Source: a virus
Lineage: Duplodnaviria > Heunggongvirae > Uroviricota > Caudoviricetes
Strand: one strand, 5' to 3'
DNA length: 64,000 nt
Virus record (IMG/VR): IMGVR_UViG_3300042009_000026
Coordinates: 253,368 to 317,367 of that record
Shown here: in pieces, positions 7,581-24,647 of the stretch
How the letters are laid out: the number at the start of each line of letters is the position of its first letter
Position numbering within the stretch: position 1 is the stretch's first letter
Position numbers and translations under genes: made by a program
Notes under the pieces: generated by a model
Database searches by the model: none
Told to the model about the DNA's origin: nothing
What the model saw: the letters and a program-made list of their open reading frames with translations, nothing else

Positions 7581-8144
7581 ATGTCTTATCTGAATCCGAA
7601 TAAACTTAAAGCTTTCATGGCCAGCCTGGAAGATAGCGATGGTGTAGCGCGTCAAGTAGACGTTACCAATGCTAGTGCTTCAGCAACCAAAGATCATCCT
7701 GCCTCACCAGAAGCAGAAGCTAACTCTAATGGTGAAGCAGCTACTGCTGCCGATACCGTGAAGGTTGGTGATGGCGACGGCGTTACTCCAACTATTCAAG
7801 ACGCCATCAATGCAGGTGTACAAGTTGGTGAAGACATCACTAAGATGGAAGAAGCCAAAGCAGCTTGTGAACATCACATTGGTGAAGTAGCTAACTACAT
7901 CGACCGTAATGAATCTGTTCCACCATCGTTGGCTGAAGTAATCAAAGTAAGCTTGGCTCGTCATGACCGCAAGTTCTTTGCTCAGACTGTTCCAGCACTG
8001 GAAGCTTTCTCAGCACACACTGGTCGTATGACTACTTCCATTGATCTGTTGAAACGACTGAAGTCTGGCGTTGATACCATCAGCCGTGGTCTGGATGCAG
8101 CCCGCGAACAAAAAGCTCGACTGGAGGCAATTGCACATGGCTAA
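7581..8144 (+). CDS. Inner-head protein family member (propeptide module only)
   Basis: SD GGAG; ASLE and PALE sites; shares the LAEVIKVSL..HDRKFF..VPALE.F block with ORFs 8137 and 9075. Confidence 0.75.
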   Translation: MSYLNPNKLKAFMASLEDSDGVARQVDVTNASASATKDHPASPEAEANSNGEAATAADTVKVGDGDGVTPTIQDAINAGVQVGEDITKMEEAKAACEHHIGEVANYIDRNESVPPSLAEVIKVSLARHDRKFFAQTVPALEAFSAHTGRMTTSIDLLKRLKSGVDTISRGLDAAREQKARLEAIAHG

Positions 8145-8673
8145 GGTAAAACTTTCTAAACTGTTGCCTTCATTGGAATCGGAAGACGGTACCGCGGAAG
8201 TAGTAGAAGCTAAAGAAGTTAGTGCTGAACTGGGCAAAGCCGAAGTTCAACAAGTAGCTGACGATGGTTCGGGTAAAGGCGACGTAGCTGAAGCTGCTCA
8301 AGAAGTAGAAGTTGATGGCAAGGATTATACCGCTATCGATGAAGCTTCTAAACGTCAAGGTGAGATCATTCACAAGCAACTCGAACGTCTACAGGAAACC
8401 GAAGTATCAGTTGAAGCGTATATCGGTGTATTGCATACAGCTGCCGCTGCCAGTGATACTATTGGTTCTGGTGCTGCAGCAGTTATCAAATACGATCTGA
8501 CTTCGCGTTATCCAAAATTCTTTAGTAAGGTTGTTCCATCTGTAGAGTCTTTCGATGGTGAACATGGTCCTGCTCGTACTACTCGACTAGAACGGGTCCT
8601 GCTTGGTAAACTGGGCGAGATCAAAACCAGTATTGCTAAGAAACAAGAACAGTTGACAAAGCTAAAAAAGTAG
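8137..8673 (+). CDS. Inner-head protein family member ending in a -1 slippery site
   Basis: ATG 8137 with GGAGG SD; PSLE, VSVE, PSVE sites; ends CTA AAA AAG TAG. Confidence 0.75.
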   Translation: MAKVKLSKLLPSLESEDGTAEVVEAKEVSAELGKAEVQQVADDGSGKGDVAEAAQEVEVDGKDYTAIDEASKRQGEIIHKQLERLQETEVSVEAYIGVLHTAAAASDTIGSGAAAVIKYDLTSRYPKFFSKVVPSVESFDGEHGPARTTRLERVLLGKLGEIKTSIAKKQEQLTKLKK

Positions 8674-8690
8674 CAGTCTCGAAAGAGACT
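8664..8690 (+). other. Predicted programmed -1 frameshift signal (A_AAA_AAG plus GNRA hairpin)
   Basis: In-frame heptamer 8664-8670, 4-nt spacer, AGTCTC-GAAA-GAGACT at 8675-8690; -1 frame open 8640-9008. Confidence 0.75.
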
Positions 8691-9008
8691 TATCTAGAAG
8701 GTCCTGATAGTACGTTCACGCATCAAGGTAAAACCTACAGCGTAGATCGGTTGTTAGAACTAACCCGTGATCTCCCAGTTGTTCAATTCGACATTACTGA
8801 ACTCGGATGGATGATCGATGATGATTACGATTTAAAAAGAATGAAGGCTGCCGATACGTCGGTTCCTATTTGTGTCTATCAACTACCGAAGTCTGGGGCT
8901 TGGGTAACAATGGATGGTTATCATCGTGTTATCAAAGCACTCTACGTTGAGAAGCGTAAAACGATACCAGCCAAGATTGTTACAGAACAGCTACGTAAAC
9001 AGCTTTAA
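8670..9008 (+). CDS. ParB/Sulfiredoxin-like domain, probably the -1 frameshift extension of ORF 8137
   Basis: PICV...WVTMDGYHRV.KA motif; frame open from 8640 with no ATG/GTG/TTG before TTG 8751, which lacks a clear SD. Confidence 0.7.
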   Translation, partial: VAVSKETYLEGPDSTFTHQGKTYSVDRLLELTRDLPVVQFDITELGWMIDDDYDLKRMKAADTSVPICVYQLPKSGAWVTMDGYHRVIKALYVEKRKTIPAKIVTEQLRKQL

Positions 9009-9019
9009 CTAAATCATTC

Positions 9020-9047
9020 GGTTGGTGCCTCTGGTACCAACCTTATG
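9020..9047 (+). terminator. Hairpin followed by TATG (possible late promoter for ORF 9075)
   Basis: GGTTGGTGCC-TCT-GGTACCAACC-T-TATG. Confidence 0.55.
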
Positions 9048-9074
9048 TAACTTTAATCCGCGGAGTAACACCAC

Positions 9075-10835
9075 ATGGCTAAGCCAGTAACTAAGAAACC
9101 AGCAGTCAAGCCTGCTGTCAAAAAACGTTTTCAAGATGCAATGGGCTTCCTGGCCTCAATGGAATCTGTAGCTATTGCTGAAGACAAGAATGTATCCGTT
9201 GACGCCCCTGTTCAAAAGGACGTCAAAATCGAAATCACTGATACCGTTAAACCTAACGATGAAGTTGGTGCTTCCGTAACGAACACCCAGACCAAAGAAC
9301 TGAAAGATACTACTCAGTCTGGTCTTGCCCAAACCCAAGACGTTGGTAAAGTCTCTGTTAAAGAAACTACCGATGCTGGTAATGCTGGCGAAGAAGATGC
9401 TGTAACTAACAAAACTCCTGATGCTGTCAAGGCAGGCGAGAAAGATCTGACCACTGGTGTTGTTTCCCAGGAAGATGCTATCGAAGCCAATGAAACAGAA
9501 CACCTTGAACCAAAAGAAGCTGATGATGCTGTAATGAACGTCGAGCATGCTGTTGAAGAACTCGAAGCTAATGGTATTACGGCTGGTTCCGATAACGCTT
9601 TGCAGAAAGCTGAATCGGTAGGGAACGACCTGGAGAATATCTCTAAAGTAGAAGCTGCTCTGGAACAATATCAAACTCTGTTGGTTGGTATGCGTAAGAA
9701 AGGTGTTAAGCCTACTCCCGAGCTGGCCCGCGCTATCAAGATCTCTCTGGAATCCCATGACCGCAATTTCTTCCGTCCTATCGTTAGCTCGCTAGAAGAC
9801 TTCGCCCGCCCTGATACCCGTCTGGTTGCTAGCCGTGGTTTGGAAGCAGCTATCGGTGACAAACTGAAAGACCTGGGTGCTGCTGCCGGTAATGCTCTGC
9901 AACGTCTGATCGAAATGCTGATCGATGCTTGGAACCACTTCACTCGTGACACTCCTAAGCTGATCGAAGAACTGGATAAGACCATCAAAGCTGTACAAGG
10001 TGCTGAACTTGCTGCTGGCGAAGACCTGCAAGTTAAGTCTGCTGGTCGTCTGATGATCAATGGTAACTTTGCTGGTGATTCTGTTGACGTTGTTAAGAAC
10101 GTTGAGAAGACCGCACAACAACTGCTGGTTGACTGGCCACAAGCTCTGATCCAACTCGTACAGACCATCGAAGCTTCCGGTAAGCAAGTAGCTGTGTCTA
10201 ACGAAGACTCTGCTGGCTCTGCCCATGGCGTTGAAGAAGCTGCACAGAAAGCTCTCGAAGCTACTTTCTCTCAGTTTACCCAAGTTGATTCCGGTGAAGC
10301 CCCTAGTTCGATGGGTGCCTATGAAATCGTAACTCGTTCGCCTGTCATGCCTGGTAACAAAGCCATGTTCATTGGTATTGGTTCCGGTACTAGTGCGGCT
10401 GAGAACGTTGCCGATAAGAACTTCATGAAGTTTGAATTCGCTTCTACTGGTGATGCTGAGTCTGGTGAAGCTGGTGTTAAGATCCCTTCGAAAGAACGTG
10501 CCGTTGCTGCTCTGAATGCTGTTAAAGGCATCGTTGCTAACCTGATCGGTAAAGATACTTCGATGGGTGCTCTGAAGAACCTACGTAAGACTATCACTTC
10601 TGGTAATCCTACCGCTAAGGGTGCTGTTCAAGCTGCTCTGATGCAACACCGGATGTTCATGGGTTATCTGACCACTCTGGTTAAATCCTACATCGCATTC
10701 TATGGTCAAGTGGCTGCTGAAAGTACTGGTAAAGGCGTTGCTGTTCGTGAGAACAACCAAGCTGCTCCAACTGACGGCAAAACTAAAGACCGTACCAAAG
10801 AAGCGGATGATGAATCCGTAGTCTCCGTACAGTAA
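9075..10835 (+). CDS. Inner-head/inner-body protein (phiKZ gp162-like, phiKZ_IP family)
   Basis: Acidic propeptide with many S/A/G-x-E sites; strongly biased codon usage; SD GGAG. Confidence 0.8.
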   Translation: MAKPVTKKPAVKPAVKKRFQDAMGFLASMESVAIAEDKNVSVDAPVQKDVKIEITDTVKPNDEVGASVTNTQTKELKDTTQSGLAQTQDVGKVSVKETTDAGNAGEEDAVTNKTPDAVKAGEKDLTTGVVSQEDAIEANETEHLEPKEADDAVMNVEHAVEELEANGITAGSDNALQKAESVGNDLENISKVEAALEQYQTLLVGMRKKGVKPTPELARAIKISLESHDRNFFRPIVSSLEDFARPDTRLVASRGLEAAIGDKLKDLGAAAGNALQRLIEMLIDAWNHFTRDTPKLIEELDKTIKAVQGAELAAGEDLQVKSAGRLMINGNFAGDSVDVVKNVEKTAQQLLVDWPQALIQLVQTIEASGKQVAVSNEDSAGSAHGVEEAAQKALEATFSQFTQVDSGEAPSSMGAYEIVTRSPVMPGNKAMFIGIGSGTSAAENVADKNFMKFEFASTGDAESGEAGVKIPSKERAVAALNAVKGIVANLIGKDTSMGALKNLRKTITSGNPTAKGAVQAALMQHRMFMGYLTTLVKSYIAFYGQVAAESTGKGVAVRENNQAAPTDGKTKDRTKEADDESVVSVQ

Positions 10836-10844
10836 GGTATTCCC

Positions 10845-12008
10845 ATGGCCGATATCACTCTAACACAGGTTGACGCTGACCTGGCCCGACTGAACCAGTA
10901 CAACCTGGCTCTCGAAGGTTTCCAGCGTGTGATGGAAGGTCGTGAGATCGTTACTGGTCCACTGGCGGTGGCAATGCGCATCGCCTTGGAGGACGCTGAA
11001 GTTGATCAGGATGATGACAAAGGCGTTACGGGTAAAGACATTGCGACTGGATTTAAGAAAGTAGCTATTACTGTTAAGAACATTATTCAGTGGCTATTGC
11101 GTACAATTGGTAAGCTGGTTGAGAAACTCGGCCTTGGGATGCAACGTCTGGGTGAGAAAGGCCGTAAGGTTAAACAAGCTCTAGCGGAAATGCCTGAAGC
11201 TGCCCGTGCCAGTCTGGGTAAAGGTGATGCTTCTGAGATTCCTCAGGACGTCTTACAACCAGAGATGCTTGCTATTGCTGGTGAATTTGTAGGCAATGAC
11301 ATTGAAGCAATTAACAACGTCATTAAGATGGGTACTTACATCAATGGAGATTTCCCTAAGATGTTTGACCAGATCATGGGCACTACTGAGCAATTAGCTC
11401 GTAAGCACATGAATGATGATACCTCTGAAGAATTCTTTAAAGCTTTGGCTGCAACACTTAGTACAGGTCTCAAACGCCCTACTGTTCCTTTCAGTGGTGA
11501 TCATTTTGCTGCTGCTGTAGCTAATGAAGAAGACACAATCAACACTGTTCCTTTGATGGGTGACCAAGGTTTCGTAATGCCTGATCCGAAAGGCTCCGGT
11601 ACACTAAACGAAAACAACCCTATTGAACAGCTGCGTGGTTATTTTGTATGGCACTTCGGTGACTACAATACTAAGAGCACAGGTTCTGTTGATATCCCAG
11701 TAGTTGACTTCGCAACAATCTCTAAGATTACCGATTTGATCGATAAGTCTATCAATGATAATATCGATAGTTCTAGTGAACTTAAGTCATTGATGGATAA
11801 ACGTGTAAGTGCAACTAATGCATTACTCGATGAAATGGCAAAAGGAGATGGCCCTGGTGCACGTGGTGAGATCGCTATGTGTGTCGGTGTAATGCTTCAA
11901 CGCTTCGCTGATTGCCTAACGAATATTCATGGTTGGTACGCACGTACATTGACACAAGAACTTGGTTATCTGAATACTTGCATCGATGTAGCCTCTAAAG
12001 GCAAATAA
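10845..12008 (+). CDS. Inner-head protein paralog (phiKZ gp163-like)
   Basis: Similar to ORF 9075 (LAVAMRIALE; MLAIAGEFVG vs LMINGNFAG; PLMGD vs PVMPGN). Confidence 0.8.
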   Translation: MADITLTQVDADLARLNQYNLALEGFQRVMEGREIVTGPLAVAMRIALEDAEVDQDDDKGVTGKDIATGFKKVAITVKNIIQWLLRTIGKLVEKLGLGMQRLGEKGRKVKQALAEMPEAARASLGKGDASEIPQDVLQPEMLAIAGEFVGNDIEAINNVIKMGTYINGDFPKMFDQIMGTTEQLARKHMNDDTSEEFFKALAATLSTGLKRPTVPFSGDHFAAAVANEEDTINTVPLMGDQGFVMPDPKGSGTLNENNPIEQLRGYFVWHFGDYNTKSTGSVDIPVVDFATISKITDLIDKSINDNIDSSSELKSLMDKRVSATNALLDEMAKGDGPGARGEIAMCVGVMLQRFADCLTNIHGWYARTLTQELGYLNTCIDVASKGK

Positions 12009-12017
12009 CGACATAGT

Positions 12018-12037
12018 GGCTTCCCTTGCGGGAAGCC
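12018..12037. terminator. Bidirectional hairpin between convergent genes
   Basis: GGCTTCCC-TTGC-GGGAAGCC flanked by ACGACATA and TATGCTGT. Confidence 0.8.
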
Positions 12038-12048
12038 TTTATGCTGTC

Positions 12049-12312
12049 TCATGCTGAGCACGTATGCTTAGGGTCACCAGTGGCTTCATGGTTACATGTA
12101 GCACGCATTCCCGCTAGCACTACGGGAATGCCATTGATTGTAAAGATCGCACTGCCTTGCGGCATTATAGCGCTTGCATGGGAACCACTACCATGTCCAG
12201 TTACACTTGCCCCCATCGTAGCGATAGGGACACCATTGATTGTAGCGATGGATTGGGTGGGTTGGATAATCCCACCTGCTGTATCAATACCTGCTCTTGC
12301 AATACCACTCAT
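12049..12312 (-). CDS. PAAR-like spike tip protein
   Basis: 87 aa; IARAG, INGVPIATMG and INGIPVVLAG repeats; His/Cys metal ligands; follows the spike gene. Confidence 0.85.
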   Translation of the reverse strand: MSGIARAGIDTAGGIIQPTQSIATINGVPIATMGASVTGHGSGSHASAIMPQGSAIFTINGIPVVLAGMRATCNHEATGDPKHTCSA

Positions 12313-12315
12313 ATG

Positions 12316-13182
12316 TCACCCTACGATTGCGAAACCACCAGATGCTTTAATCAAAACCTTACCGCCACCGATAGTGACGTCAGGAGCCGCTATGTTGACT
12401 GTTTGTGACGTACTGGTAACATTAGTCGTCTGAGTACTTACCGTGTCAGGAGTGAGCTTATAGACGGTCCCACCTACGGTTAACGTAATAGATTCTGCAG
12501 CAAACAATTCAATTGTCTTTCTTTCGATCTTAATGAAGGTACCATCGGCATTCTTCATTTGGATTCGGTTCTCACGGGAAACAATTTCGATCTCGTTATT
12601 GATATCATCCGTAATTGTGAATTCACCGGTATCTGTATTGAACTGTTGGGTATAAGCATACGGTTCACCGTTCGCTTTGGATGTACCAAAGGTAAAGTGT
12701 TTGTCATGTGCTGATACGGCCATGTAATAACACGTATTGAAGTCAACGCCTGCACCACCAGGAGTAGGAGAAGCATTCCAGGTATAGACAACAGATTCTA
12801 ATGCCCGTAGTTCGTTCTTTAAGGCCAGTGAGCGCCAATAGTATTTGTCTGAGTCTCCTAGTCGCCATACTTCTACGAGTTCGTTACGCATGATGTCAGG
12901 AGGTGTAGCACGGTTATCCTCAGAAGGTAACCATTCACAGGGAACAGATCGTTCAGCTGTTGTTTTGACTTGGTGAGTTGCTCCGCTAGTGTCTTGCCAT
13001 TCCCTTACGGTTTCTTTGGGATCAAATTTGATTTCCCCATCAGTAGCCATTGCCTTCTCGTTCATGAGAACGTTCAGTGTTTTAGACTTGCGGGGCTTGT
13101 TCTCTTTAGACGTACCGATAGAAACTAATCGGAACATGGATGCGGCTTGGCCGCTTATTGGTTTCTGTGAAGCTTGTTCCAT
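12316..13182 (-). CDS. Baseplate central spike protein (phiKZ gp164-like)
   Basis: ATG 13182 with AAGGA SD; beta-strand-rich C-terminus; adjacent PAAR gene. Confidence 0.7.
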   Translation of the reverse strand: MEQASQKPISGQAASMFRLVSIGTSKENKPRKSKTLNVLMNEKAMATDGEIKFDPKETVREWQDTSGATHQVKTTAERSVPCEWLPSEDNRATPPDIMRNELVEVWRLGDSDKYYWRSLALKNELRALESVVYTWNASPTPGGAGVDFNTCYYMAVSAHDKHFTFGTSKANGEPYAYTQQFNTDTGEFTITDDINNEIEIVSRENRIQMKNADGTFIKIERKTIELFAAESITLTVGGTVYKLTPDTVSTQTTNVTSTSQTVNIAAPDVTIGGGKVLIKASGGFAIVG

Positions 13183-13264
13183 TTTGATATCCTTGAAGAT
13201 TATACTCAAGAGCCAGATCTAATGTAGACAACGGCGCTAAGAATAAGGAAGGGGGCTTTTTACT

Positions 13265-15757
13265 GTGTATCTAAGTTTAGTAAAGTTAGAGCGATACAAA
13301 CGATTGATGTTATCGAACATCCAAAGTTTGGAATGGACACCAACAAAGAACCTGATGGTAATTATTGGTAGCAATGGTTCGGGTAAGTCCTCATTGCTTG
13401 ATGAGCTATCCCCACTACCTTCTCATCACTCTCAATTCGAGAAAGATGGCAGTAAGACAGTACACTGCATGCACCGTAATGCTCGGTATGTATTGCATTC
13501 ACATTACGATCGTGGTACAGGTCATCATTCATTTATCCGTGATGACATTGAACTGAATGAAGGTGGTACCTATCAAATTCAACTTGATCTCTGTAAGCAA
13601 GAGTTCGGGTTACAGCAAGACATCCAAGATTTGATGACTGGACGTACTAAGTTCTCTCAGCTCCCAGTTAACAAACGTCGTGATTGGTTGACTCGTGCAT
13701 CTCCAGTAGACCTGGGTTATGCGTTTAACATATTGTCCAAAGTTACAGATGCTGCCCGTGCACAGAAGAATGTTATCGATCACATGACTAAGCGTCTAGC
13801 GAATGAAAACATTGATATGCTGGATGACTCAGAGATTTCTCGACTGCGTCAAGAACGTCAGCGGTTGACTGATCGGGTTAACACATTGTTCCTGCATCGG
13901 AATCCTTCATCCAAACGTGGCTTTGCTCACAACGGACATGCTAAAGAAGAACTGGATGCACTCATCTACGATGCCAAGTGGCTACTGCGCCAATACCCAC
14001 GCCTGACTGATAACACTCGGGTTGTCAATAAAGGCGAGTATAACCAGATCGTTAACCAACGTCTGGCTAACGTACAAGCTGCGCAAGCAGTAATTGATCG
14101 GTTGTTAGAAGAACTTGAAACTATTCGTGCTACAACACCAGCACAGATGGATAAGATCTCACCTGAGGATCTAGCTGAGTTGAAAGAGAGATTGCAACAT
14201 CACTTAACAACTGCGAATGAACAAAGCAGTGTGATGAAAGCTTATCAAGGCTCGATCCCTTTGTGTCGTACAGGATTATTTGGTGATCAACATGCTCGGT
14301 TAGAAGATGCATTTGATCGTGCTTACGGTATTGTGATGTCCATCCCTAACAACGAAGATGGGGAAATGTCCACAGCCATTGCGCAAAACAAAAAAGAACA
14401 ACTGAAAGAGTTCAAACATAAACTGCGTAGCATCGAAGAGTTTATCTCCGAGACAATGCGTCGCATTGCTACATTAAAAGGATGCGACCATGTACAGTGT
14501 CCAAATTGCCAACACACATTCGCTCCTGGTGTAGATCCGAAAGATATACCGCAACTGGAAGAAAGACTGCGAAAAGCCTCCGAGGCAGAAGCTCATTTCC
14601 AACGTGAGATAAAAGCCATTGATGAGTACTTGGAACGGTATGTTGATTATGCTGGCTATGTACAGCAATTCCAACAAATTACCAGGGATCATCGTGACTA
14701 CGCGGCAGTATGGGAATGGATGGTCGGTGAAGGTAGACTGTTCCGTTCACCTAAGTCGATTGCCACAGATGTAATTAGCTGGCACACTGCACAACAGGCG
14801 ATGATCGAAACAGAAATCCAGATCGAACACAGTAAGCAGATAGAAGCTCGTTTGAAAGTTATCGAAGAGATTGACTTTGATGCTGCAGGTTACATGATGC
14901 AACGAGCTATAGACCTGGAAACAGAAGTCAATGTTAAACTGTTGCAACAACAATCTACTCGGGATGCAATCGAAGCATATATGCATTCGGGTAATGATGT
15001 TGATGTATTCATTGGTAAAGTGAATGGTTGTTTGGAATCATTTGCTAAATGGCGCGAACTGGCTCTGCAACATGCCGAGTGGTTGTTGGACCAAGCGTTT
15101 ACTTCTGAGATCGATGCTACTCACCAACAACTAGCCACTACTGGTAATCGTTTGCGTGAAGCAGAACGTCGGGATACAGAAATTCGTTTGCTGGAAGATA
15201 CGGTAGCTGATGCAGCTGATGCTTATACAGACTTACAACTCCTGGCTAAAGCGCTTTCCCCTAAAGGTGGATTGATTGGTCAGTACATGTTGGGGTTTTT
15301 GCAGGGGGTAACTAAATTGGTTAATACAGTCATCGAAGATGTCTGGACTTACCCAATGGAAGTATTGCCTTCGAAGATTGATAAAGAAGATCTGGATTAT
15401 AAGTTCCCATTGAACGTATCAAATGGTGCTGTGGAACCTACCGATATCGATTTGGGTTCTGATTCACAGAAAGAGATCGTTAACTTTGCCTTCCGTATTG
15501 CATTGTTAAAGTTCATGGGCTTTGACGACTTCCCTTTGATGCTGGATGAATTCGGTCGTACCTTCGATGAACAACATCGGGCTAACTTGATTCCATTCAT
15601 TTCACGCATGATTGAGATGGGGCAATACCAACAGATTTTTTATATCAGTCACTACCAGAACACACATGGTGCCTTCAACCAAGCTGAGATTGTTGTACTT
15701 GATCCAACTAACGTTACAGTGCCAGAGCAATTCAATAAAAACATGGTGATGACATGA
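13265..15757 (+). CDS. sbcC: SbcC/Rad50-like SMC ATPase (phiKZ gp165-like)
   Basis: Walker A GSNGSGKS, coiled coils, zinc hook CPNC, Walker B LMLDE, ISH switch. Confidence 0.9.
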   Translation: MYLSLVKLERYKRLMLSNIQSLEWTPTKNLMVIIGSNGSGKSSLLDELSPLPSHHSQFEKDGSKTVHCMHRNARYVLHSHYDRGTGHHSFIRDDIELNEGGTYQIQLDLCKQEFGLQQDIQDLMTGRTKFSQLPVNKRRDWLTRASPVDLGYAFNILSKVTDAARAQKNVIDHMTKRLANENIDMLDDSEISRLRQERQRLTDRVNTLFLHRNPSSKRGFAHNGHAKEELDALIYDAKWLLRQYPRLTDNTRVVNKGEYNQIVNQRLANVQAAQAVIDRLLEELETIRATTPAQMDKISPEDLAELKERLQHHLTTANEQSSVMKAYQGSIPLCRTGLFGDQHARLEDAFDRAYGIVMSIPNNEDGEMSTAIAQNKKEQLKEFKHKLRSIEEFISETMRRIATLKGCDHVQCPNCQHTFAPGVDPKDIPQLEERLRKASEAEAHFQREIKAIDEYLERYVDYAGYVQQFQQITRDHRDYAAVWEWMVGEGRLFRSPKSIATDVISWHTAQQAMIETEIQIEHSKQIEARLKVIEEIDFDAAGYMMQRAIDLETEVNVKLLQQQSTRDAIEAYMHSGNDVDVFIGKVNGCLESFAKWRELALQHAEWLLDQAFTSEIDATHQQLATTGNRLREAERRDTEIRLLEDTVADAADAYTDLQLLAKALSPKGGLIGQYMLGFLQGVTKLVNTVIEDVWTYPMEVLPSKIDKEDLDYKFPLNVSNGAVEPTDIDLGSDSQKEIVNFAFRIALLKFMGFDDFPLMLDEFGRTFDEQHRANLIPFISRMIEMGQYQQIFYISHYQNTHGAFNQAEIVVLDPTNVTVPEQFNKNMVMT

Positions 15758-16397: not shown

Positions 16398-16405
16398 GGT
16401 ATTAC

Positions 16406-16810: not shown

Positions 16811-16811
16811 G

Positions 16812-17240: not shown

Positions 17241-17249
17241 TTGAAACTT

Positions 17250-17276
17250 TTTAAACAGCTATATTACAATTGTGAA
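17250..17276 (+). promoter_or_regulatory. phiKZ-type early promoter
   Basis: AAACAGC-TATATTAC (core 17260-17267)-AATTGTGAA. Confidence 0.75.
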
Positions 17277-17302
17277 TCTAGCCTATTAAAAGGAATCCAA
17301 TC

Positions 17303-17470
17303 ATGTCGACGATCAAAATCGGTAAAGTTTCGCTCAACCTCAAAACCGGTAAAGTAAATATTGATCGCCGCACGATCAAGAAAGCTGATCCTTCTTGGCA
17401 TCATGCTGCATATGTAGTAATCGGTCTGGTGGCTACAGTTGTAGTTGCCGATTATATCCGCAACAAATAA
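17303..17470 (+). CDS. 55-aa basic protein with C-terminal TM helix (not in ORF track)
   Basis: SD AAAGGA; MSTIKIGKVSLNLKTGKVNIDRRTIKKADPSWHHAAYVVIGLVATVVVADYIRNK. Confidence 0.7.
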   Translation: MSTIKIGKVSLNLKTGKVNIDRRTIKKADPSWHHAAYVVIGLVATVVVADYIRNK

Positions 17471-17503
17471 ACTGAACCTCAAAAATCAAAACGGAGTAAC
17501 ACA

Positions 17504-17677
17504 ATGAAATTTTCTACCCTCGCTGCTGTAGCTGGTATCGGTGCTGTTGGTTTCCTGGCGTACCGCTTCCTGACTGGCAACGAAGTTCTTGAAGTTCCAA
17601 CTCCAGAAGAAGCTCTTCCGGAAACTCCAGTGCTGCTTCTGCCAGCACCGACCGTGGTTGAAACTCAAGCAGAGTGA
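17504..17677 (+). CDS. 57-aa protein with N-terminal TM helix and acidic Pro-rich tail (not in ORF track)
   Basis: SD GGAG; MKFSTLAAVAGIGAVGFLAYRFLTGNEVLEVPTPEEALPETPVLLLPAPTVVETQAE. Confidence 0.7.
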   Translation: MKFSTLAAVAGIGAVGFLAYRFLTGNEVLEVPTPEEALPETPVLLLPAPTVVETQAE

Positions 17678-17684
17678 CATACCA

Positions 17685-17706
17685 CCCCCTCCTTCACGGG
17701 AGGGGG
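17685..17706. terminator. Hairpin between convergent genes
   Basis: CCCCCTCCT-TCAC-GGGAGGGGG, preceded by GACATA. Confidence 0.7.
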
Positions 17707-17723
17707 CAGGTTCAATTTTCTTT

Positions 17724-18179
17724 TTATTCGTCTTGCTCTTGAGCTTCTCGGATTAGCTTCATGCGATCCTGGAATTGATCAGATGTTTCATTAACCAAAC
17801 CAATGTGTTCTTCACCCTCAGCATGTTCGAAATTACCCAGATCTTCAAGCTTGAGTTCTGGCACACGGCCTTCTGGTACATTGTGAATTTCGCCGGGTTG
17901 AATAGCAAACGGGTTCTGGTTCTTAGCTTGACGGATAATCTCAGCCATAGCGCCCAACAGATCGTTGTTAGACTTGTTGCCTTCTTGCTCGATCTGGTTA
18001 CGCTTAGCAGCAATAGCAGTTTGAGTATGGTCTTTTGTAGCTTTAAGGATAATGTCAATATCATCCTTGTCGCATACACCTAGGCCTTTGGACATCTTCT
18101 CGATTACGATGCTCTCACGGATCTCTTGACCCCAGGCTAATTGTTCGTCATATGTCATGGCTTGAGCGGCGTGACTCAT
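17724..18179 (-). CDS. Hypothetical protein
   Basis: 151 aa, SD AAGGA. Confidence 0.7.
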   Translation of the reverse strand: MSHAAQAMTYDEQLAWGQEIRESIVIEKMSKGLGVCDKDDIDIILKATKDHTQTAIAAKRNQIEQEGNKSNNDLLGAMAEIIRQAKNQNPFAIQPGEIHNVPEGRVPELKLEDLGNFEHAEGEEHIGLVNETSDQFQDRMKLIREAQEQDE

Positions 18180-18262
18180 GGTGTGCTTCCTTATTCTTTG
18201 CGAGTAATCAAATACTCAACTGATTAACAATATACCGTAAACGGCATTCTGGAGTTCATAAG

Positions 18263-18814
18263 ATGTTCTCGAAGATCATCAATAAATACAGGGCCTGGCG
18301 ATTAAATTCCAAGCTCGAACAATATGCGGAGATCCTCGAAGACATCGACGGGGCAAACTGCAAACCTGAAGACTACCCCGTAAAACTCAAAGAATTCTGG
18401 CGGTTGTTTGATATGTCACTGTTGGATGACCTAGTCATTCGTGATGTGATGGGGCACACCGGGCAGCTAAGGCACCGTAACTTCGCACAACTCCACCAGT
18501 TGTTGTTGGATGTAAACGATGCTATTGCCAACCAGCAAGACTCCCGGATTGAATACGTAAGTCGAACAGGCGTAATGCATCAAGCAGAAGTTGAGCTCGA
18601 TAATTACTTCTTCGATCCGATCCATGGTCACTTGAACATCAAAGAGTGCCTGGAGCAACTGCGTCAACTGTTACAAGCCCATTGTGGTATCCTAGAGAAC
18701 ATCGAAGATACGTATGGGCAGCGCAAGATGCTACATGTGTACTATGACATCTATACGTTGTCAGATTTGATCATTGATATCCTTCACGATAAAGGAGAAG
18801 CCTTATTCCACTAG
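18263..18814 (+). CDS. Hypothetical protein
   Basis: 183 aa, SD GGAG. Confidence 0.7.
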   Translation: MFSKIINKYRAWRLNSKLEQYAEILEDIDGANCKPEDYPVKLKEFWRLFDMSLLDDLVIRDVMGHTGQLRHRNFAQLHQLLLDVNDAIANQQDSRIEYVSRTGVMHQAEVELDNYFFDPIHGHLNIKECLEQLRQLLQAHCGILENIEDTYGQRKMLHVYYDIYTLSDLIIDILHDKGEALFH

Positions 18815-18856
18815 ACAGGTTTTAGCACTACCAAACCCTCTTAACATCCACCGTAG

Positions 18857-19615
18857 GTGAATAGCAACATGGAATCCGTAAAAGATCTACTGACTGATCC
18901 GCTTAAAGGTAAGAATCGTGCTCAAGGTGTATTGTGCTATCTCTTTCGAGAAGTACTGCTTTGGCGACGTGTGAATCAGATCGTTTGGAATAAGCGACTG
19001 AACGCATACTTTGAAAAACCACATAACCAAGAAAAGCCAGATAAAGGAAACTTGAATAAAGCTCTCCTGAATGATGACTTGCCTTGGGCTGGGTTTAAGA
19101 AGGCGATGGATTTCCTCTCACCACTTGAAGCTAAGCTGGTGATGGATTTTACTTGGCGTGATGGCAGTAGCACTTCGTACGAGATCGTGATCGATCCAGC
19201 TGGGGATGAGAAGCTCCAGTATAAAGACGTCTTCACGTATGAAGGTTGTGACGTATTCAACAAAGCCAAAAAACCGGTATCGACATTAGCGTATCTGTTC
19301 CGACATATCATCGCCCAAGAAGGAATAGATGAGACGCAATGGGAACAGTTGTTTAATGACTATGCTGAAAATCCTGTTAATCAAGTTGGGGTTAAGAAAT
19401 CCGAACTGAACGGCACCATCAGCATGATGAAGCGAGCACTCCTAGATGGGAAACTCTCGTGGAACGTGTTTAGACGTGGTGTACTGTTGCTGAAGCCACA
19501 AAAAGAAGTGTACACCTTGAAGTTGAAGTGGACCACAGACCCACACTTGATCAATAGCATGCCCGATCAAGAATGGTCAGCCACTATCGAAGACCCGTAC
19601 AGTGAGAAAGCGTAA
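18857..19615 (+). CDS. Hypothetical protein with internal domain duplication
   Basis: Two copies of L.YLFR..I/L...W...KA/RALL...L.W..F; start may be ATG 18869. Confidence 0.75.
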   Translation: MNSNMESVKDLLTDPLKGKNRAQGVLCYLFREVLLWRRVNQIVWNKRLNAYFEKPHNQEKPDKGNLNKALLNDDLPWAGFKKAMDFLSPLEAKLVMDFTWRDGSSTSYEIVIDPAGDEKLQYKDVFTYEGCDVFNKAKKPVSTLAYLFRHIIAQEGIDETQWEQLFNDYAENPVNQVGVKKSELNGTISMMKRALLDGKLSWNVFRRGVLLLKPQKEVYTLKLKWTTDPHLINSMPDQEWSATIEDPYSEKA

Positions 19616-19998
19616 TGCAAAAAGTTCTGAACCTGAGCACCATCTCCCGTGATAACCCTTTCTCGGTAGATAACCAAACTCCAAAACAAACTGCGACTGG
19701 TTTGAACTTCCGCACATACCGCGGACTCCGTATGTATCTCATCACGGGCTCTATGGAGCCTGGATGGCTTCGTGCTGTTTACCCTCATGACTTTGCTGCC
19801 CTACATCAGAAACAAGCCGCTTACGTGTTCGTACGCGATCTGAAGGAAATCATGAGTGGTGCTTTGCAACGTGACATCGCCACTCGACCAATGGTTGGAT
19901 TGATTGCTAATCGTAAAACGGAAGTAGTTACGGCTGGCAATACATCTTCTGATTATGAATGGCGCGATATTGTTAAAGAGGTTGTAGCAGGCTTGTAA
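19615..19998 (+). CDS. Hypothetical protein
   Basis: TAATG coupling with the upstream gene. Confidence 0.65.
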   Translation: MQKVLNLSTISRDNPFSVDNQTPKQTATGLNFRTYRGLRMYLITGSMEPGWLRAVYPHDFAALHQKQAAYVFVRDLKEIMSGALQRDIATRPMVGLIANRKTEVVTAGNTSSDYEWRDIVKEVVAGL

Positions 19999-20006
19999 CT
20001 CCAAAC

Positions 20007-20037
20007 AAGTGGCTTCCCTTCGGGGAAGCTGCTTATG
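20007..20037 (+). terminator. UUCG hairpin followed by TATG
   Basis: AAGTGGCTTCCC-TTCG-GGGAAGCTGCT-TATG. Confidence 0.7.
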
Positions 20038-20085
20038 CCAGATCTTATGATCCTCATATTTTTTTTTTACTTCAAGGTGAGCAAA

Positions 20086-21153
20086 ATGGCAGCAATTGCA
20101 CTTCCGTCTTTTCTGGGTACACCAGAAGACGCAACAAAAGTAGTAGACGCATACGGTGAAACTAGTTCAGAACTCCGTACACAACTCTCTTCTAAGATTA
20201 CATCGTTCTCTTCTGGCCTAGGTGGCGTGTTCGATAAGACGGTTGGTATTGCTAAAGGTATCGGTAATAAGCTCCGTACTAATGCCATCGACTTACCATC
20301 AGCCATGCGGCGCGTACAAGGGGCACTGAAGGGCTCTCGATCAGATATTACTAGGATTGCTAGCTCTACTGAAAAGATGATCATGAGTGAGCTCACAGGC
20401 TCTGATAAGAACACCAACTACATCAAGACTGTAACCGATGTAGCGAAGGGTTTAGAACTCATGGTAGGTGATGGTCGTCAAGTTATCGACTCCTTTAAGA
20501 ATGGGGGTTATAACCAAGTCAGTGCAATGGTTGGGTTTATCTCTGATCTAACCGATAGTCCTAACTTAAAGCTATTCGACTTAGGTGCAGAAGCGGCTAT
20601 CTTGCGTGGTGTAGTAGAAGAAGTATCTGCATGGGGCGTTCCTAGTCTGGTCGATAAGATCATGAAGGATCAACCAGATGCTACCAAGTATGCGGTAATC
20701 AAACGTTCTGCTGATCGTATCTCTTACACCAGTTCACTAGACGTATTATTGTCTTATGCCAATGTAGAGTCCAGCAAGAATATCGGCACCGAGCAAGATC
20801 CAAGATATGCTAACATTGGAGCTGGTGCACTTAATGCCAACACCCCTGACTTTGCTATTAAGGTATTGTCTAACTTTGCATTCGTTCAAGGAATTACCGT
20901 AGGGGATTATCCAACACAACTAGCTAAGCTTGTAGAACTAATGAACAAATTAAAACCTGATTGGTTCTGGACATTACGTGGACAACAGCAAGTGTGGAAC
21001 TTAGGTACTCTGGCGACAGCGTCAGAAGATGCAGTGAAGCTTTTCCTATCGTCCCCAGTATATCGGGATGCTATCTTAACCGCTCCATTCTATTCGCCAA
21101 TGCGCGTGGATGAATTAGTAGATACCATGTATCCTTTAACTACAACAGCATAA
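20086..21153 (+). CDS. Virion structural protein (phiKZ gp174-like)
   Basis: ATG 20086 with AAGGTG SD; TATG motifs upstream; convergent with the protease. Confidence 0.65.
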   Translation: MAAIALPSFLGTPEDATKVVDAYGETSSELRTQLSSKITSFSSGLGGVFDKTVGIAKGIGNKLRTNAIDLPSAMRRVQGALKGSRSDITRIASSTEKMIMSELTGSDKNTNYIKTVTDVAKGLELMVGDGRQVIDSFKNGGYNQVSAMVGFISDLTDSPNLKLFDLGAEAAILRGVVEEVSAWGVPSLVDKIMKDQPDATKYAVIKRSADRISYTSSLDVLLSYANVESSKNIGTEQDPRYANIGAGALNANTPDFAIKVLSNFAFVQGITVGDYPTQLAKLVELMNKLKPDWFWTLRGQQQVWNLGTLATASEDAVKLFLSSPVYRDAILTAPFYSPMRVDELVDTMYPLTTTA

Positions 21154-21162
21154 CGACATAAT

Positions 21163-21182
21163 GGCTACCCTTCGGGGTAGCC
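21163..21182. terminator. Bidirectional UUCG hairpin
   Basis: GGCTACCC-TTCG-GGGTAGCC flanked by ACGACATA and TATGCTGT. Confidence 0.8.
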
Positions 21183-21200
21183 TTATGCTGTATTTTTTTG

Positions 21201-22031
21201 TTACGACATGTAGCGAGGGCGCCGAGTAGCTGGACGACGTTCCCAACCCAGATTAGTAATCAGGTCAGATACATCGAGATGGCTAGCAGATTCCAAACCT
21301 TGAGCTTTACGCTTCTCAGCTTCATCTTGCAAGGCCCACAGAGTAGTCGGGTTAATCGTCATTTCTGTTTCAGCGAATGATTCTAGTGCAGGAGAGTTGT
21401 GCTTACCCGCTACATAGATACCACCTTCACCAACGAAGTCCCAGGTAGAGATTTCACGAGTGTACTTAATACCACGCATTACATCGTCTTGGGTAATCGA
21501 ACGTACTGAGCAATAAGTGTTGATGTGTGGATTGGTAATAGATGCTTCGAACTCTTTAGCGAAAGGACCGTAAGGTTTAACTTCAGCAATAACGAGTTTG
21601 CAAGGACGACCATTCTCATCTCGGCCATCGACAATAGTCAATGCACGGATGTGTGCGCAAACACGATCATCATCGATCTTACGGATACGACCCAGGTATT
21701 CCCGATCGTCCATATAGCGTTTGCATTTCTCACCATCTTTCAGAACCCATTCCCAAGGCTCAGGGTGTTTGAATTCCATGTACAGCACTTGCTTGAGCAA
21801 GCGGCGCATTAATGGAGAACCAGGTGTAAACATTGATACACCTGATGCGGCATCATAAAACATACCGGCAGAGTTTTGGGTGCCATAAGCGCCAACGCAG
21901 AGAGTGTAATACCCATCTGCGTCAGGAGTCAGGATGCCTTTCTTACCACCGGCAGTCAGAAGACTACCGCTAATACGTACTTGGTTACCGGCTTGCTTCT
22001 GGACACCAAAGTAATCTTGAGCTGTGCTCAT
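21201..22031 (-). CDS. Prohead (head maturation) serine protease (phiKZ gp175-like)
   Basis: EFKHP (His), YCSVRS (Ser), TWDFV (Asp) motifs; C-terminal ALE/GLE self-cleavage sites. Confidence 0.85.
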   Translation of the reverse strand: MSTAQDYFGVQKQAGNQVRISGSLLTAGGKKGILTPDADGYYTLCVGAYGTQNSAGMFYDAASGVSMFTPGSPLMRRLLKQVLYMEFKHPEPWEWVLKDGEKCKRYMDDREYLGRIRKIDDDRVCAHIRALTIVDGRDENGRPCKLVIAEVKPYGPFAKEFEASITNPHINTYCSVRSITQDDVMRGIKYTREISTWDFVGEGGIYVAGKHNSPALESFAETEMTINPTTLWALQDEAEKRKAQGLESASHLDVSDLITNLGWERRPATRRPRYMS

Positions 22032-22042
22032 AATGGTGTTCC

Positions 22043-22756
22043 TTACGTACGAAGAATTTCTTCAATCAGTTCTACAGACTCACTCGGGTTAACTACCGCT
22101 GTGTTGATAGCGTCAGCAAAGTAAGCACCGTTCAATCGGCTAGTGGTATCGGAGGTGTTCCAAACTACAGAGCGGAAAGGAATAACTTTAGGTGGGTTGG
22201 TGACAACATCCGAATGGTTATTCAGAATGTGTCGGTACAGTCGTGTCAGGTCGTCTTTATCACGAGCAGTTGTCGAGATAATCAGTTCCAAGATCGCACG
22301 TGAACCCAAGTTAACACCAGCATGCAGCGAAGCAGTGTCAAACATCTTGGCCATGTCGTAATAGTTCATGTACCACGGAATGTTCCCTTTAGCGACTAGT
22401 TCATCGTAAAGGTAATAAGTCAGTGTATCGTTCACTACGAGTTGGTTGTTCACAAATACCACATCACCAGGTTCAAAAGAGAACTCAAAGTAATCAGTAC
22501 CACGAACTGTAACTTTCTTAGTCGAGCTTGGACGGATCTGCATCATTGCAATTGTGTTATCAACACCGTAATATTGGTCATTCACAATGAGAGCATAGAA
22601 CCCAACGATAAAAACTTCAGAACCTAGGATCGCTAGGTCCTTATTCTGAAATCGTACAGGCACATGAATCTTAACAGGAGCATCTGTAACAGTGCTCCCA
22701 TTCTCTTGTAGATGTAGGTGTTGGAACACACGCTTTGCATCGCGTGTTAACTCCAT
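22043..22756 (-). CDS. Conserved phiKZ-like protein (gp176-like)
   Basis: 237 aa, SD AAGGGGA; synteny. Confidence 0.7.
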   Translation of the reverse strand: MELTRDAKRVFQHLHLQENGSTVTDAPVKIHVPVRFQNKDLAILGSEVFIVGFYALIVNDQYYGVDNTIAMMQIRPSSTKKVTVRGTDYFEFSFEPGDVVFVNNQLVVNDTLTYYLYDELVAKGNIPWYMNYYDMAKMFDTASLHAGVNLGSRAILELIISTTARDKDDLTRLYRHILNNHSDVVTNPPKVIPFRSVVWNTSDTTSRLNGAYFADAINTAVVNPSESVELIEEILRT

Positions 22757-23028
22757 TACTTGGTCCCCTTGATCTCTTTCTCAACCTTAGCTAAGTCAGC
22801 CTTAAATTGTTTCAGTGCTTCCGCAAGATCTTCCTCATCGGAGAGATACCAGGATTCACAGATACGATCATAAGCTTTCTCTTTCTTAGCATCACCATTG
22901 GTAGACGCATTCAGTACTTCCATGCGTGCAATCAATGGCTCCATTTCTTTAGGATACTTAGAAGCGAGGTTACGTACACGGGTTGACTGGCAACCCGCTT
23001 TATGAATACGTTGATCAAGGGTTAACGC
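22756..23028 (-). CDS. 90-aa domain, probable -1 frameshift extension of ORF 24647 (track calls 62 aa from ATG 22944)
   Basis: Frame open from 23049 to stop at 22756; entered through G_GGA_AAG; ATG 22944 has no clear SD. Confidence 0.6.
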   Translation of the reverse strand, partial: ALTLDQRIHKAGCQSTRVRNLASKYPKEMEPLIARMEVLNASTNGDAKKEKAYDRICESWYLSDEEDLAEALKQFKADLAKVEKEIKGTK

Positions 23029-24647
23029 TTTCCCGAGTGTGCCTCGAGACTAGCATCAGTATCTTCGTCTTCAGCATCCAGTTCATCGGCTTCATCAGTC
23101 TCTTCGACCAAAGGACCTTCACCGGTAGCTGCATCAGCGATAGCGCCTTCTGCTTCACCACCTGTAGGCTCCTCTAGTGCTGCTGGAGCTTGTTCGATAA
23201 CTTCAGGCTTGAACCGTTCGACTTGGATCTGACTGGCTGCCCAGACAGCGTACAGAGAGAACAGTGCGTTAGTGGACAGTTCACGACGAGAAGCTTCAGG
23301 AGCTTCTTGGCCAGCCTTATCCATCAGTTGCATATATTCCCAGTAAGTAGATTCAGGGAAGTAGATACGGCAGATCAGTTGACCGAAAGCAACGAACTCA
23401 TTGCACAGTTGTTCTGGACGAACAGCACGGATAGCATCAACGACTTTATCACGCAGACCATCTACTTGCATTTCAGCAAGAGTACCTTGACCAGCTTGAT
23501 TAACGAATGCTTCGATCATGTCTTGACGACGGGAACGTTCAGCATTGTCAGTAGCAGCTTGTTGGATCAGTGGATAGATAGCTTGGAACTTCTGAATGAA
23601 GTAGACCTTACGCTCTTCTAGTCGAGCTATGGTTTGGCTACCACTGTTTTCCAGAGCAGAACCCAGGACAGCAGACAGGTCGCCATTAGCAGCACGCCAT
23701 TGTGGTTCAACGTCACCATTCAGCCATACCACTAGACGACGGTTCTCGATTGCATTAGCTGCTTCAGCGCGGAGTACCAGCACGCCATTGCGCTGGTCTT
23801 CAGCACGACGCTGATAAGCACGCAACAGATAAGCACCAATCATCTCGTGAAGCATACGCATCACATGCATCCATTCTTCGTAGCCTACATTCATCTCGCC
23901 TACTGGTTCGCATGGGTTCTCACCCAGGTGACCACACAGGAAGTATGCCAGCAACAGACCATCAATGTTGAAAGGAGCATTAGTCCCAACAACGAAAGAA
24001 AGTTCACCAACAGTAAGAGCTTTGTTACGATTGAACAAGTCAGCATAAGTACGGCTGATGACTTCTGGATCTACACCCAGCAACCATTCGGTAATTTGTT
24101 CACGTTCAGCATGTGGGTTATTGATCGAGACCATTTCGATGATCTGTTCAACACCTTGAGCTGGGAGAATAAATGTACGGTATTGAGGTTGTGGATTTAC
24201 GTTTGCATAGTTCTGCAAATGAGAAGTCAAACGTGGTTCCGAATGGATAGCATTGTAACGGAAGATGTCAGCACGAATATCAGCAGAAGTAGAAGCTTGC
24301 TGACGTTCATTGAAGTCACGTACCATCGAGTCAATACCCGGAATAACAACGTTGGCTACATTGTACTGGATCTTACCCAGAGCAGCAGCAACCAGACTGA
24401 CCATATCCTTGTTGTCTTCTTCGACAGTGATAGGTTGTTCTTCGTTCATTTCGGTAAAGTGATCTTCAACCGATGCAACGAGTTCATCGGATACTTCTGG
24501 ACCGGCGGTAGGTTCATCTACAGCATAGCCGCTTGCGAACTGAGCAACAGGAAACTCAGGATTCGGAACGACCAGCACTTGACTCGATTCAGTCAGTTGT
24601 TGTGCAATCAGTTTTACAGACTGCACGGTGTTGGCGATATCAGACAT
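23022..24647 (-). CDS. Head-associated protein (phiKZ gp177-like) with acidic C-terminal tail
   Basis: ATG 24647 with AAAGGA SD; ASVE, AALE, ASLE protease-type motifs; synteny. Confidence 0.7.
   Translation of the reverse strand: MSDIANTVQSVKLIAQQLTESSQVLVVPNPEFPVAQFASGYAVDEPTAGPEVSDELVASVEDHFTEMNEEQPITVEEDNKDMVSLVAAALGKIQYNVANVVIPGIDSMVRDFNERQQASTSADIRADIFRYNAIHSEPRLTSHLQNYANVNPQPQYRTFILPAQGVEQIIEMVSINNPHAEREQITEWLLGVDPEVISRTYADLFNRNKALTVGELSFVVGTNAPFNIDGLLLAYFLCGHLGENPCEPVGEMNVGYEEWMHVMRMLHEMIGAYLLRAYQRRAEDQRNGVLVLRAEAANAIENRRLVVWLNGDVEPQWRAANGDLSAVLGSALENSGSQTIARLEERKVYFIQKFQAIYPLIQQAATDNAERSRRQDMIEAFVNQAGQGTLAEMQVDGLRDKVVDAIRAVRPEQLCNEFVAFGQLICRIYFPESTYWEYMQLMDKAGQEAPEASRRELSTNALFSLYAVWAASQIQVERFKPEVIEQAPAALEEPTGGEAEGAIADAATGEGPLVEETDEADELDAEDEDTDASLEAHSGKR
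23028..23034 (-). other. Predicted -1 slippery heptamer G_GGA_AAG
   Basis: Zero frame TCG GGA AAG CGT TAA; same heptamer as the lambda G/GT frameshift. Confidence 0.65.

Follow-up and report, generated by a model that had tools for sequence, protein, structure and literature searches.

The DNA described here, called the window throughout, is the last 64 kb (positions 253,368 to 317,367) of the 317,367-bp single-contig genome of a phiKZ-like phage (IMG/VR record IMGVR_UViG_3300042009_000026). It holds two head-protein genes, carrier 1 (8137..8673, plus strand) and carrier 2 (23022..24647, minus strand), that each end in a heptamer of the slippery type beside the stop codon and open into a long -1 frame, with an S-x-E tripeptide close to the junction. 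These junctions are named sites 1 and 2, and the domains encoded beyond them cargo 1 and cargo 2. A sequence-only reading of the window had proposed that the two genes, which it took to be non-homologous, produce by -1 frameshifting a fraction of head proteins with an extra domain, which is packaged and then cut free by the prohead protease. On re-reading the window, all of its coordinates and sequence statements proved correct, and we report here how the proposal stands against relatives of the phage. Between positions 8000 and 24800, the window shares about 78% identity with Pseudomonas phages Psa21 and D6 and about 79% with RVTF4, the latter over 16% of the query (megablast). Handles beginning with G denote genomes (G000, the window's own; G001 and G002, complete IMG/VR relatives; G004, a further relative).

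Results

Carrier 1 and its -1 extension

Carrier 1 encodes a 178-aa short paralog of the internal head proteins (IPs) (phrog_8282, E 3e-7). Its residues 1-159 are 74% identical to the N-terminus of a 471-aa full-length IP in the relative L008, whose counterparts in other relatives carry PF12699. The Pfam model PF12699 itself gives no match to the 178-aa protein, because the latter covers the N-terminal part only. From this comparison, carrier 1 appears to be an IP copy reduced to the N-terminal module, the body having been lost.

The 3' end of the gene reads CTA AAA AAG TAG, which is an in-phase A_AAA_AAG heptamer (8664..8670, plus strand) with the TAG (8671-8673) immediately after it. The -1 frame is open from 8640 to 9008. 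From the slip site it runs for 112 codons (8670..9008, plus strand; phrog_17560, E 4e-21), through a linker, V-A-V-S-K-E, into a domain of predicted ParB/Srx fold with a D-G-Y-H-R motif. The earliest ATG, GTG or TTG in this frame is TTG 8751, 27 codons past the slip. The S-K-E codons (8679..8687, plus strand) form a candidate prohead-protease site, since S-x-E is conserved in the relatives. Folding of the window and of relatives revealed a 6-bp hairpin with a GAAA loop (8675..8690, plus strand) that begins 4 nt past the heptamer. A hairpin in which two base pairs have changed in a compensatory way occupies this position in Psa21, and most of the other lineages have none. This hairpin is at best a lineage-specific stimulator; the element common to the site 1 lineages is the adjacent stop codon, not a hairpin.

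Carrier 1 is the second of two tandem short IP paralogs that overlap by 8 nt. The first (7581..8144, plus strand; 187 aa; PF12699, E 2e-6) is 27% identical to carrier 1. Both consist of the N-terminal module only, up to a conserved [PS]-[SA]-x-E-x-F site (P-S-V-E-S-F type among the short IP paralogs), and the candidate frameshift cassette is found on the second copy only.

Site 1 across relatives

Site 1 was compared in Psa21, D6, RVTF4, four IMG/VR contigs and ten further metagenomic contigs, a set of 17 distinct lineages. In 15 of the 17, NNA_AAR is followed directly by TAA or TAG, with the slip site of L017 lying one codon earlier. Perfect heptamers of four kinds occur in eight lineages: A_AAA_AAG (window, L025), G_GGA_AAG (D6, L019, L017), C_CCA_AAG (RVTF4, L026/27) and A_AAA_AAA (L021/22); a near-perfect G_GGG_AAG is present in L015. 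Fourteen of the 15 frameshift-type lineages have AAG as the final codon (AAA in L021/22), and the codon preceding it invariably has A in third position. In the window's genome, A-ending codons account for 23% of all codons and GGA for 11% of glycine codons. The slip sites are kept as slip sites while the sequence itself changes. The upstream gene encodes an IP of about 460 aa in most lineages and of 178-183 aa in the window, Psa21 and L025.

Past the slip, the -1 frame of the frameshift-type lineages reads K-V-x-x-S-x-E-x-Y-x-E-G-P-D-S-T-F-T-H. In the 14 aligned, the S, E, Y, E-G, D-S and F residues are invariant and the x of S-x-E varies. Nucleotide changes after the slip concentrate at third codon positions: over the first 19 codons, pairwise differences at codon positions 1, 2 and 3 are 250/243/704 (13 lineages, L017 being left out for an indel), and over the last nine (E-G-P-D-S-T-F-T-H) they are 36/24/354. 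Synonymous versus non-synonymous codon changes are 489:347 in the -1 frame; the two other frames give 100:761 and 54:807. The -1 frame opens just 3-21 codons before the stop and is not conserved upstream of K-V. These substitution patterns indicate that the stretch after the slip is translated and under protein-level selection that starts at the junction. Neither a start nor a Shine-Dalgarno sequence is conserved across these lineages. Most of them, the window included, have no canonical start upstream of the selected stretch, and the ATG annotated in GenBank (in T-H-M-G-K) is replaced by a Q, E or L codon in six of the 15 frameshift-type lineages, again including the window.

The two remaining lineages, L011 and L023, form a divergent subclade with a different gene context. 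Their ORFs are preceded by AAGAGG or AAGGGG, a Shine-Dalgarno (SD) sequence, and an ATG just upstream, so that they read M-S-G-S-K-T-V-Y-T-E-G, and they lack the A_AAG, the S-x-E and the IP neighbour. Since an own SD and ATG coincide with the loss of both slip site and S-x-E, the three features are gained and lost together. These own-start ParB/Srx-like genes (L011:2474-2839 and L023:2001-2348) lie in a non-head context, with an acetyltransferase neighbour in L023.

Carrier 2 and its -1 extension

Carrier 2 encodes a 541-aa homolog of phiKZ gp177 with an acidic C-terminal tail (phrog_3841, E 1e-98), 43% identical to PHIKZ177 over 86% of its length (tblastn). The records of KTN4 and Churi label PHIKZ177 'structural head protein'. 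The two carriers therefore belong to different families (phrog_8282 vs phrog_3841), as had been supposed. The 3' end of the gene reads TCG GGA AAG CGT TAA, so that an in-phase G_GGA_AAG heptamer (23028..23034, minus strand) stands one codon ahead of the TAA (23024-23022); the heptamer is identical in Psa21 and two IMG/VR relatives. Here, the protease-type tripeptide is encoded in the zero frame: S-L-E (23043..23051, minus strand) lies five residues ahead of the slip. The -1 frame extension (22756..23028, minus strand) has 90 codons and a stop, and its first start, ATG 22944, comes 28 codons in.

The extension is present in the window, Psa21 and two IMG/VR phages, and absent from D6, RVTF4, G002 and G004; at the gp177 homolog of D6, neither the S-x-E tail nor the downstream ORF is found. 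All four carriers with the extension end in S-[LT]-E-A-[HY]-S-G-K-x-stop, with TCG GGA AAG, and keep G_GGA_AAG-N3-TAA. Mean pairwise nucleotide identity is 91% from the heptamer to +65 nt versus 72% further on, and third-position identity is 0.87 in the first 22 codons versus 0.59 in the remaining ORF. This region, where synonymous change is suppressed, includes a conserved interrupted hairpin of 6 bp + 8 bp, 16 nt past the heptamer (22972..23011, minus strand; RNAalifold consensus), in which variation is limited to loop changes or to G-C pairs becoming G-U.

The stop of the extension overlaps the ATG of the gp176-like gene (TAATG, 22756-22758), so that frameshifted ribosomes would terminate on the start of that gene. 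Translational coupling may be affected by such termination.

A third site and its in-frame counterpart

The proposal had called for a search of this genome and its relatives for heptamers at head-gene 3' ends followed by start-less -1 ORFs. When the complete relatives G001 and G002 were scanned in the same way as the window's genome, a third site came to light in both. The carrier is a 641-aa protein in G001 (G001:C1:211554-213479, minus strand), whose gene ends TTG GGA AAG CAT TAA, and an 896-aa protein in G002 (G002:C1:121342-124032, plus strand), whose gene ends GTG GGA AAG CTC TGA. The design is the same in both: G_GGA_AAG, one codon and the stop, with S-N-E six residues before the slip and about 250 codons in the -1 frame, without a start for 27-32 codons.

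The window's own genome carries an in-frame counterpart outside the window, an uninterrupted 600-aa ORF (G000:C1:65466-67268, minus strand; equivalent to L069:2469-4268) with an N-terminus that matches a virion structural protein PHROG. The predicted transframe junction of the third site, V-S-N-E-D-F-G-S-L-G-K followed by A-L-S-G-L-F-R-G-K-P-K-D-L, corresponds to V-A-N-E-N-F-S-S-L-E-S-K-L-G-G-F-F-R-H-K-P-K-D-L in this ORF, which thus has the same domain in frame behind A-N-E. The alignment is ungapped, with 70% identity over 81 aa (E 3e-38). An ungapped match of a transframe sequence to an in-frame ORF gives independent support to the view that the cassette of G_GGA_AAG, codon and stop joins frames in this clade. 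Judged from this alignment, the joined third-site product would have the usual head-protein layout of N-terminal module, S/A-x-E and body.

Rarity of the layout in the genome

For the whole genome, 399 ORFs were called greedily, which covers 93% of the sequence and 98,285 codon positions. In-phase X_XXY_YYZ occurs at 156 of these positions and in-phase X_XXA_AAG at ten, among which sites 1 and 2 alone adjoin a stop (0 and 1 codons away) and alone lead into a long -1 frame (112 and 90 codons; the other eight give at most 23). A -1 continuation of at least 80 codons past the stop is itself common (96 of 399 genes), the next gene often being in that frame, but only eight of the 399 have a long continuation without a start in its first 15 codons. 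Rough arithmetic from these rates gives about 0.0014 genes expected per genome with both properties, or about 0.03 if any X_XXY_YYZ is allowed, and two are observed. The six other start-less continuations are ordinary intergenic spacers, each ending in an SD and ATG. A relaxed scan for slippery tetramers near stops yielded no further case in this genome, since the other long -1 continuations start within 0-2 codons, and one at 12. One candidate, A_AAG_GGC at genome positions 41719-42129, was rejected as a third heptamer because the ATG of the next gene follows three codons later.

The candidate internal starts in the window show essentially no SD pairing. Predicted anti-SD pairing is 0.0 kcal/mol at TTG 8751 and -0.8 kcal/mol at ATG 22944, for a median of -4.7 at genes and -2.0 at random positions. 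Inspection by eye found no conserved upstream SD-like stimulator, as in dnaX, at site 1 or site 2, and the genome encodes no tRNA-Lys or tRNA-Gly bearing on slippage. Transcriptional slippage is unlikely as a general mechanism, as most lineages have just three A in the heptamer.

Counted by codon phase, XXXAAAG occurs 9, 41 and 5 times in this genome, the slippery phase (9) being about 4-8 times rarer than the phase with 41. This suggests that in-phase XXXAAAG is avoided, which is consistent with selection against accidental frameshift sites.

S-x-E motifs and the prohead protease

Proteases of the phiKZ gp175 type cut after S/A/G-x-E. The window encodes such an enzyme (21201..22031, minus strand; MEROPS S80; Peptidase_S80 PF20034, E 1.7e-88; phrog_3014, E 8e-80), which confirms the protease assigned to this gene in the sequence-only reading, and the gene sits about 1 kb from site 2. 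At both junctions, an S/A/G-x-E tripeptide stands at the domain boundary, S-K-E past junction 1 and S-L-E ahead of junction 2. Across relatives, S-x-E is present in 14/14 aligned site 1, 4/4 site 2 and 2/2 third-site lineages while the neighbouring residues vary. It was noted from the start that the motif lies near the junctions; it turns out to be invariant wherever the frameshift layout exists and to be lost where the ORF has its own SD and ATG. In the phiKZ virion, gp177 and the inner-body proteins gp93/95/97 undergo cleavage at (L)S-x-E and enter the host by injection (PMC10449902), and the long N-terminal propeptides of giant-phage head proteins appear to be head-targeting signals (PMC5694885).

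Cargo domains

An exhaustive search retrieved 436 relatives of cargo 1 at E up to 0.001, the majority of them about 110-125 aa long and beginning near x-Y-x-E-G, just after the candidate cleavage site; in others the domain forms the C-terminus of longer proteins. The AlphaFold2 (AF2) model of cargo 1, built from a 69-sequence alignment, has a predicted local distance difference test score (pLDDT) of 83.7, with roughly the first 14 residues disordered, and S-K-E falls in this low-pLDDT linker. The top 40 or more Foldseek matches are all Srx, SbnI, ParB, Noc, KorB or PadC (best E 9e-4, template modelling score 0.45-0.55), and the family profile matches SbnI (E 7e-5). The D83, H86 and R87 residues of the D-G-x-H-R motif are invariant in the 69 sequences. 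Pfam ParB_N (PF02195) matches one of these 69 family members (E 0.003) and not the query itself, and Pfam gave nothing significant for either cargo domain or for carrier 2. From the structural model, cargo 1 is best described as a ParB/Srx-fold domain of a distant minimal branch, which has neither a helix-turn-helix nor a ParA partner.

Several homologs connect this family with virions. PA5oct gp343 (L004:2138-2887), which has 249 aa and according to its GenBank entry is a structural protein seen by electrospray ionization tandem mass spectrometry (ESI-MS/MS), carries the domain at its C-terminal end, and P0059 (907 aa) is an in-frame fusion of the domain with a portal/MuF-type minor head protein. 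The packaging of ParB-like domains in heads, where they are predicted to be NTP-regulated DNases, has been discussed (PMC5512222). These homologies suggest that the cargo 1 family is a recurrent virion-delivered module. Elsewhere, the domain is fused in frame to a cytidyltransferase-containing protein (P0104, 919 aa), and P0024 (1401 aa) matches it in 15 separate stretches, an unusual tandem array.

Cargo 2 is predicted to be a small five-helix protein (AF2 pLDDT 89.8). Its most conserved block, L-D-Q-R-x-H-x-A-G-C-x-S-T-R-V-R, precedes the first ATG, and initiation at ATG 22944 would leave out the 30 residues that are most conserved. A free-standing metagenomic homolog, P0022 (53% identity), begins M-A-Q-S-L-D-Q-R exactly at the junction position, and in phage Viktualia a free-standing copy occupies the corresponding place in the genome. 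Foldseek against the PDB gave no match at E 0.001 or better, and a wide VIA-align search gave only generic helical bundles (Z up to 7). The A-G-C-x-S-T-R-V-R stretch looked like a helix-turn-helix; no support for this was found, and we make no such claim. The 89-aa free-standing homologs (P0022, P0023) lie on short metagenomic contigs (L032:2501-2770, L033:546-815 and L034:131-400) and adjoin a ThiF-like gene (PF00899), with a protein giving Sel1/TPR matches also nearby in L033; these neighbours may hint at the function of cargo 2.

Gene neighbourhood

Carrier 1 lies in a run of phiKZ_IP internal head protein genes that spans 7581-12008 and includes two full-length members of 586 and 387 aa (9075..12008, plus strand; PF12699, E 1.5e-50 and 5e-15). 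Around site 2, an ORF at 24839-29323 (1494 aa) matches a gene that the Psa21 and D6 annotations call RNA polymerase beta subunit, and a gp176-like virion structural protein (22043..22756, minus strand; phrog_2926, E 7.5e-93) lies between extension 2 and the protease gene. The order RNA polymerase beta, small ORF, gp177-like, gp176-like and protease is the same in Psa21, D6 and Viktualia.

Discussion

The layout of sites 1 and 2, its conservation, the coding selection across the junction and the homologies of the proteins are all observed in the genomes compared. From them, we infer that most ribosomes terminate at the zero-frame stop and yield the plain carrier, while a fraction, with that stop in the A site or adjoining it, moves back by one base on X_XXA_AAG and goes on to translate a domain that lacks its own start codon. 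At site 1, the 178-aa IP module and the 106-aa ParB/Srx-fold domain would be joined in a 290-aa fusion, and at site 2 the gp177 homolog and the 90-codon helical protein in a 630-aa fusion, the rate of slipping setting their share. The carrier would then take the fusion into the prohead, where the S80 protease would cut after the E of the linker S-x-E and thereby free the 106-aa ParB/Srx domain and the 95-aa helical protein. The freed domain would stay in the head at low copy and probably be ejected with the DNA. Given what is established for phiKZ and other giant phages, this is the most economical interpretation, and it is that of the sequence-only reading. For this whole reading, from frameshifting at head-gene 3' ends through packaging and protease release to ejection, we estimate a probability of about 0.7. 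Its parts are not equally firm: that frameshifting is real at both sites is highly probable, and release by the protease inside the head is favoured with appreciably less confidence.

A number of observations weigh against this interpretation. In five site 1 lineages (Psa21, L008, L009, L010 and L024), only the A_AAG tetramer is slippery; with A_AAG and a stop alone, the P-site tRNA would re-pair poorly, and frameshifting there, Psa21 included, may be inefficient. No downstream RNA structure is common to all site 1 lineages, hairpins being found in some of them only. The site 2 hairpin shows no covariation in the RNAalifold analysis of four lineages, because it hardly varies, and its 16-nt spacer is longer than usual. 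In some site 1 lineages, an ATG, GTG or TTG occurs 3-7 codons past the stop, and occasional independent initiation may take place there. [SAG]-x-E is a short motif. Finally, the Psa21 and D6 papers mention no frameshift and report no virion mass spectrometry.

The alternative that survives best accepts the frameshift and disputes what follows, the extended proteins being uncleaved C-terminal variants, like T7 10B or the Ig-like capsid extensions, or not packaged, with S-x-E kept for some other reason. All the frameshift evidence would fit it equally, the motif is short, and at site 2 it lies in the zero-frame tail and so also in the unshifted protein. We nevertheless consider it unlikely, as S-x-E is invariant amid varying neighbours at all three sites, disappears where the ORF has its own start, and sits in a low-confidence linker exactly where free-standing homologs begin; moreover, the phiKZ homologs of both carriers are cleaved at this kind of motif (PMC10449902).

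Less likely still, the downstream ORFs could be ordinary separate genes that start at an internal ATG or TTG, or at a non-canonical codon, next to heptamers that arose by coincidence. The GenBank records of Psa21, D6 and RVTF4 do annotate separate coding sequences from internal ATGs, an ATG stands 17 codons after the stop in most site 1 lineages and earlier in a few, and distant homologs are free-standing in Erwinia phage Huxley, Serratia phage PCH45, Viktualia and P0022. However, coding selection begins upstream of every annotated start, the ATG is not conserved, the window's candidate starts lack an SD, and initiation at ATG 22944 would lose the most conserved residues of cargo 2. A slip motif that is kept while its sequence changes is also not expected by chance. 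Of the refuting outcomes that the proposal had named, those open to computation, heptamers not conserved in relatives and downstream ORFs that initiate independently, were both decided in favour of the proposal. As for the idea that the layout is a decaying remnant of a fusion once in frame and then disrupted by a 1-nt indel, or a sequencing error in a homopolymer, the window's site 1 does sit in a run of six A and an in-frame version of the third cassette does exist in this genome, but the comparative data effectively refute this explanation, the same frame relation recurring in at least 15 independently assembled lineages, including those with GGGAAAG and CCCAAAG, with purifying selection on both sides.

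Frameshifting followed by packaging and release would combine features of several known systems. The slippery heptamer of lambda G/GT is G_GGA_AAG, the one present at site 2 and at the third site. As in lambda and other tail-assembly chaperones, the slip falls late in a morphogenetic gene, close to its 3' end, the domain beyond it is start-less and a fixed ratio of short to long product is expected. Yet GT, an assembly chaperone, does not form part of the virion, while the carriers here are of the head-internal, ejected type, the appended parts are unrelated domains and a protease site lies between carrier and cargo. T7 10A/10B and the Ig-like capsid extensions offer the likeness of a head gene extended C-terminally by a -1 slip near the stop; those extensions remain attached and decorate the shell, with no sign of protease release or host delivery. 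The window's site 1 has the same A_AAA_AAG followed by a hairpin as Escherichia coli dnaX and the IS3 family. In dnaX, however, the shift truncates the product whereas here it extends it, and the feature shared across lineages is here the adjacent stop rather than a conserved hairpin or an upstream SD.

Regarding delivery, the closest likeness is with T4 IPI-III and Alt and with the inner-body proteins of phiKZ and SPN3US, in which an N-terminal targeting module is followed by cleavage at a motif ending in E, the C-terminal part being retained and injected (PMC5694885, PMC10449902). The 600-aa ORF at G000 65466-67268 has this in-frame layout, with A-N-E. The difference is that those proteins are encoded in one reading frame, while the cargo here would be reached by recoding only, giving a carrier and a minority fusion. 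P1 DdrB and the polyvalent or MuF proteins likewise include a ParB/Srx domain without ParA or helix-turn-helix, head-associated and predicted to be injected (PMC5512222). They are in-frame multidomain proteins, and cargo 1 is likened to them at the level of the ParB/Srx superfamily. Our literature search found no programmed frameshift described for phiKZ-like or jumbo phages. Frameshift extensions and protease-removed head-targeting propeptides are each known; we found no description of the two combined.

More tentatively, and with rather less than even confidence, the three sites may be instances of a portable recoding cassette in Psa21-like jumbo phages. Composed of S-x-E, X_XXA_AAG, a stop and a start-less ORF, it would allow unrelated effectors to be plugged behind head-targeted proteins, dosed by frameshift efficiency and freed by the prohead protease for injection. 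The cassette is gained, lost, turned in-frame or made free-standing between close relatives, which fits an accessory and possibly counter-defence cargo.

To conclude, how giant phages select and dose the low-copy proteins that they eject is not well understood, and a frameshift that links a start-less effector to a head-targeting carrier would, if true, be a simple stoichiometry device and add the loading of head cargo to the known uses of frameshifting in phages. Besides, this work corrects annotation throughout the clade, where these ORFs are now called from internal ATGs that cut off conserved sequence, and makes the two cargos, one a minimal ParB/Srx domain and the other a small helical protein, candidates for injected effectors. 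A natural design by which jumbo-phage capsids could be loaded with foreign proteins is suggested as well.

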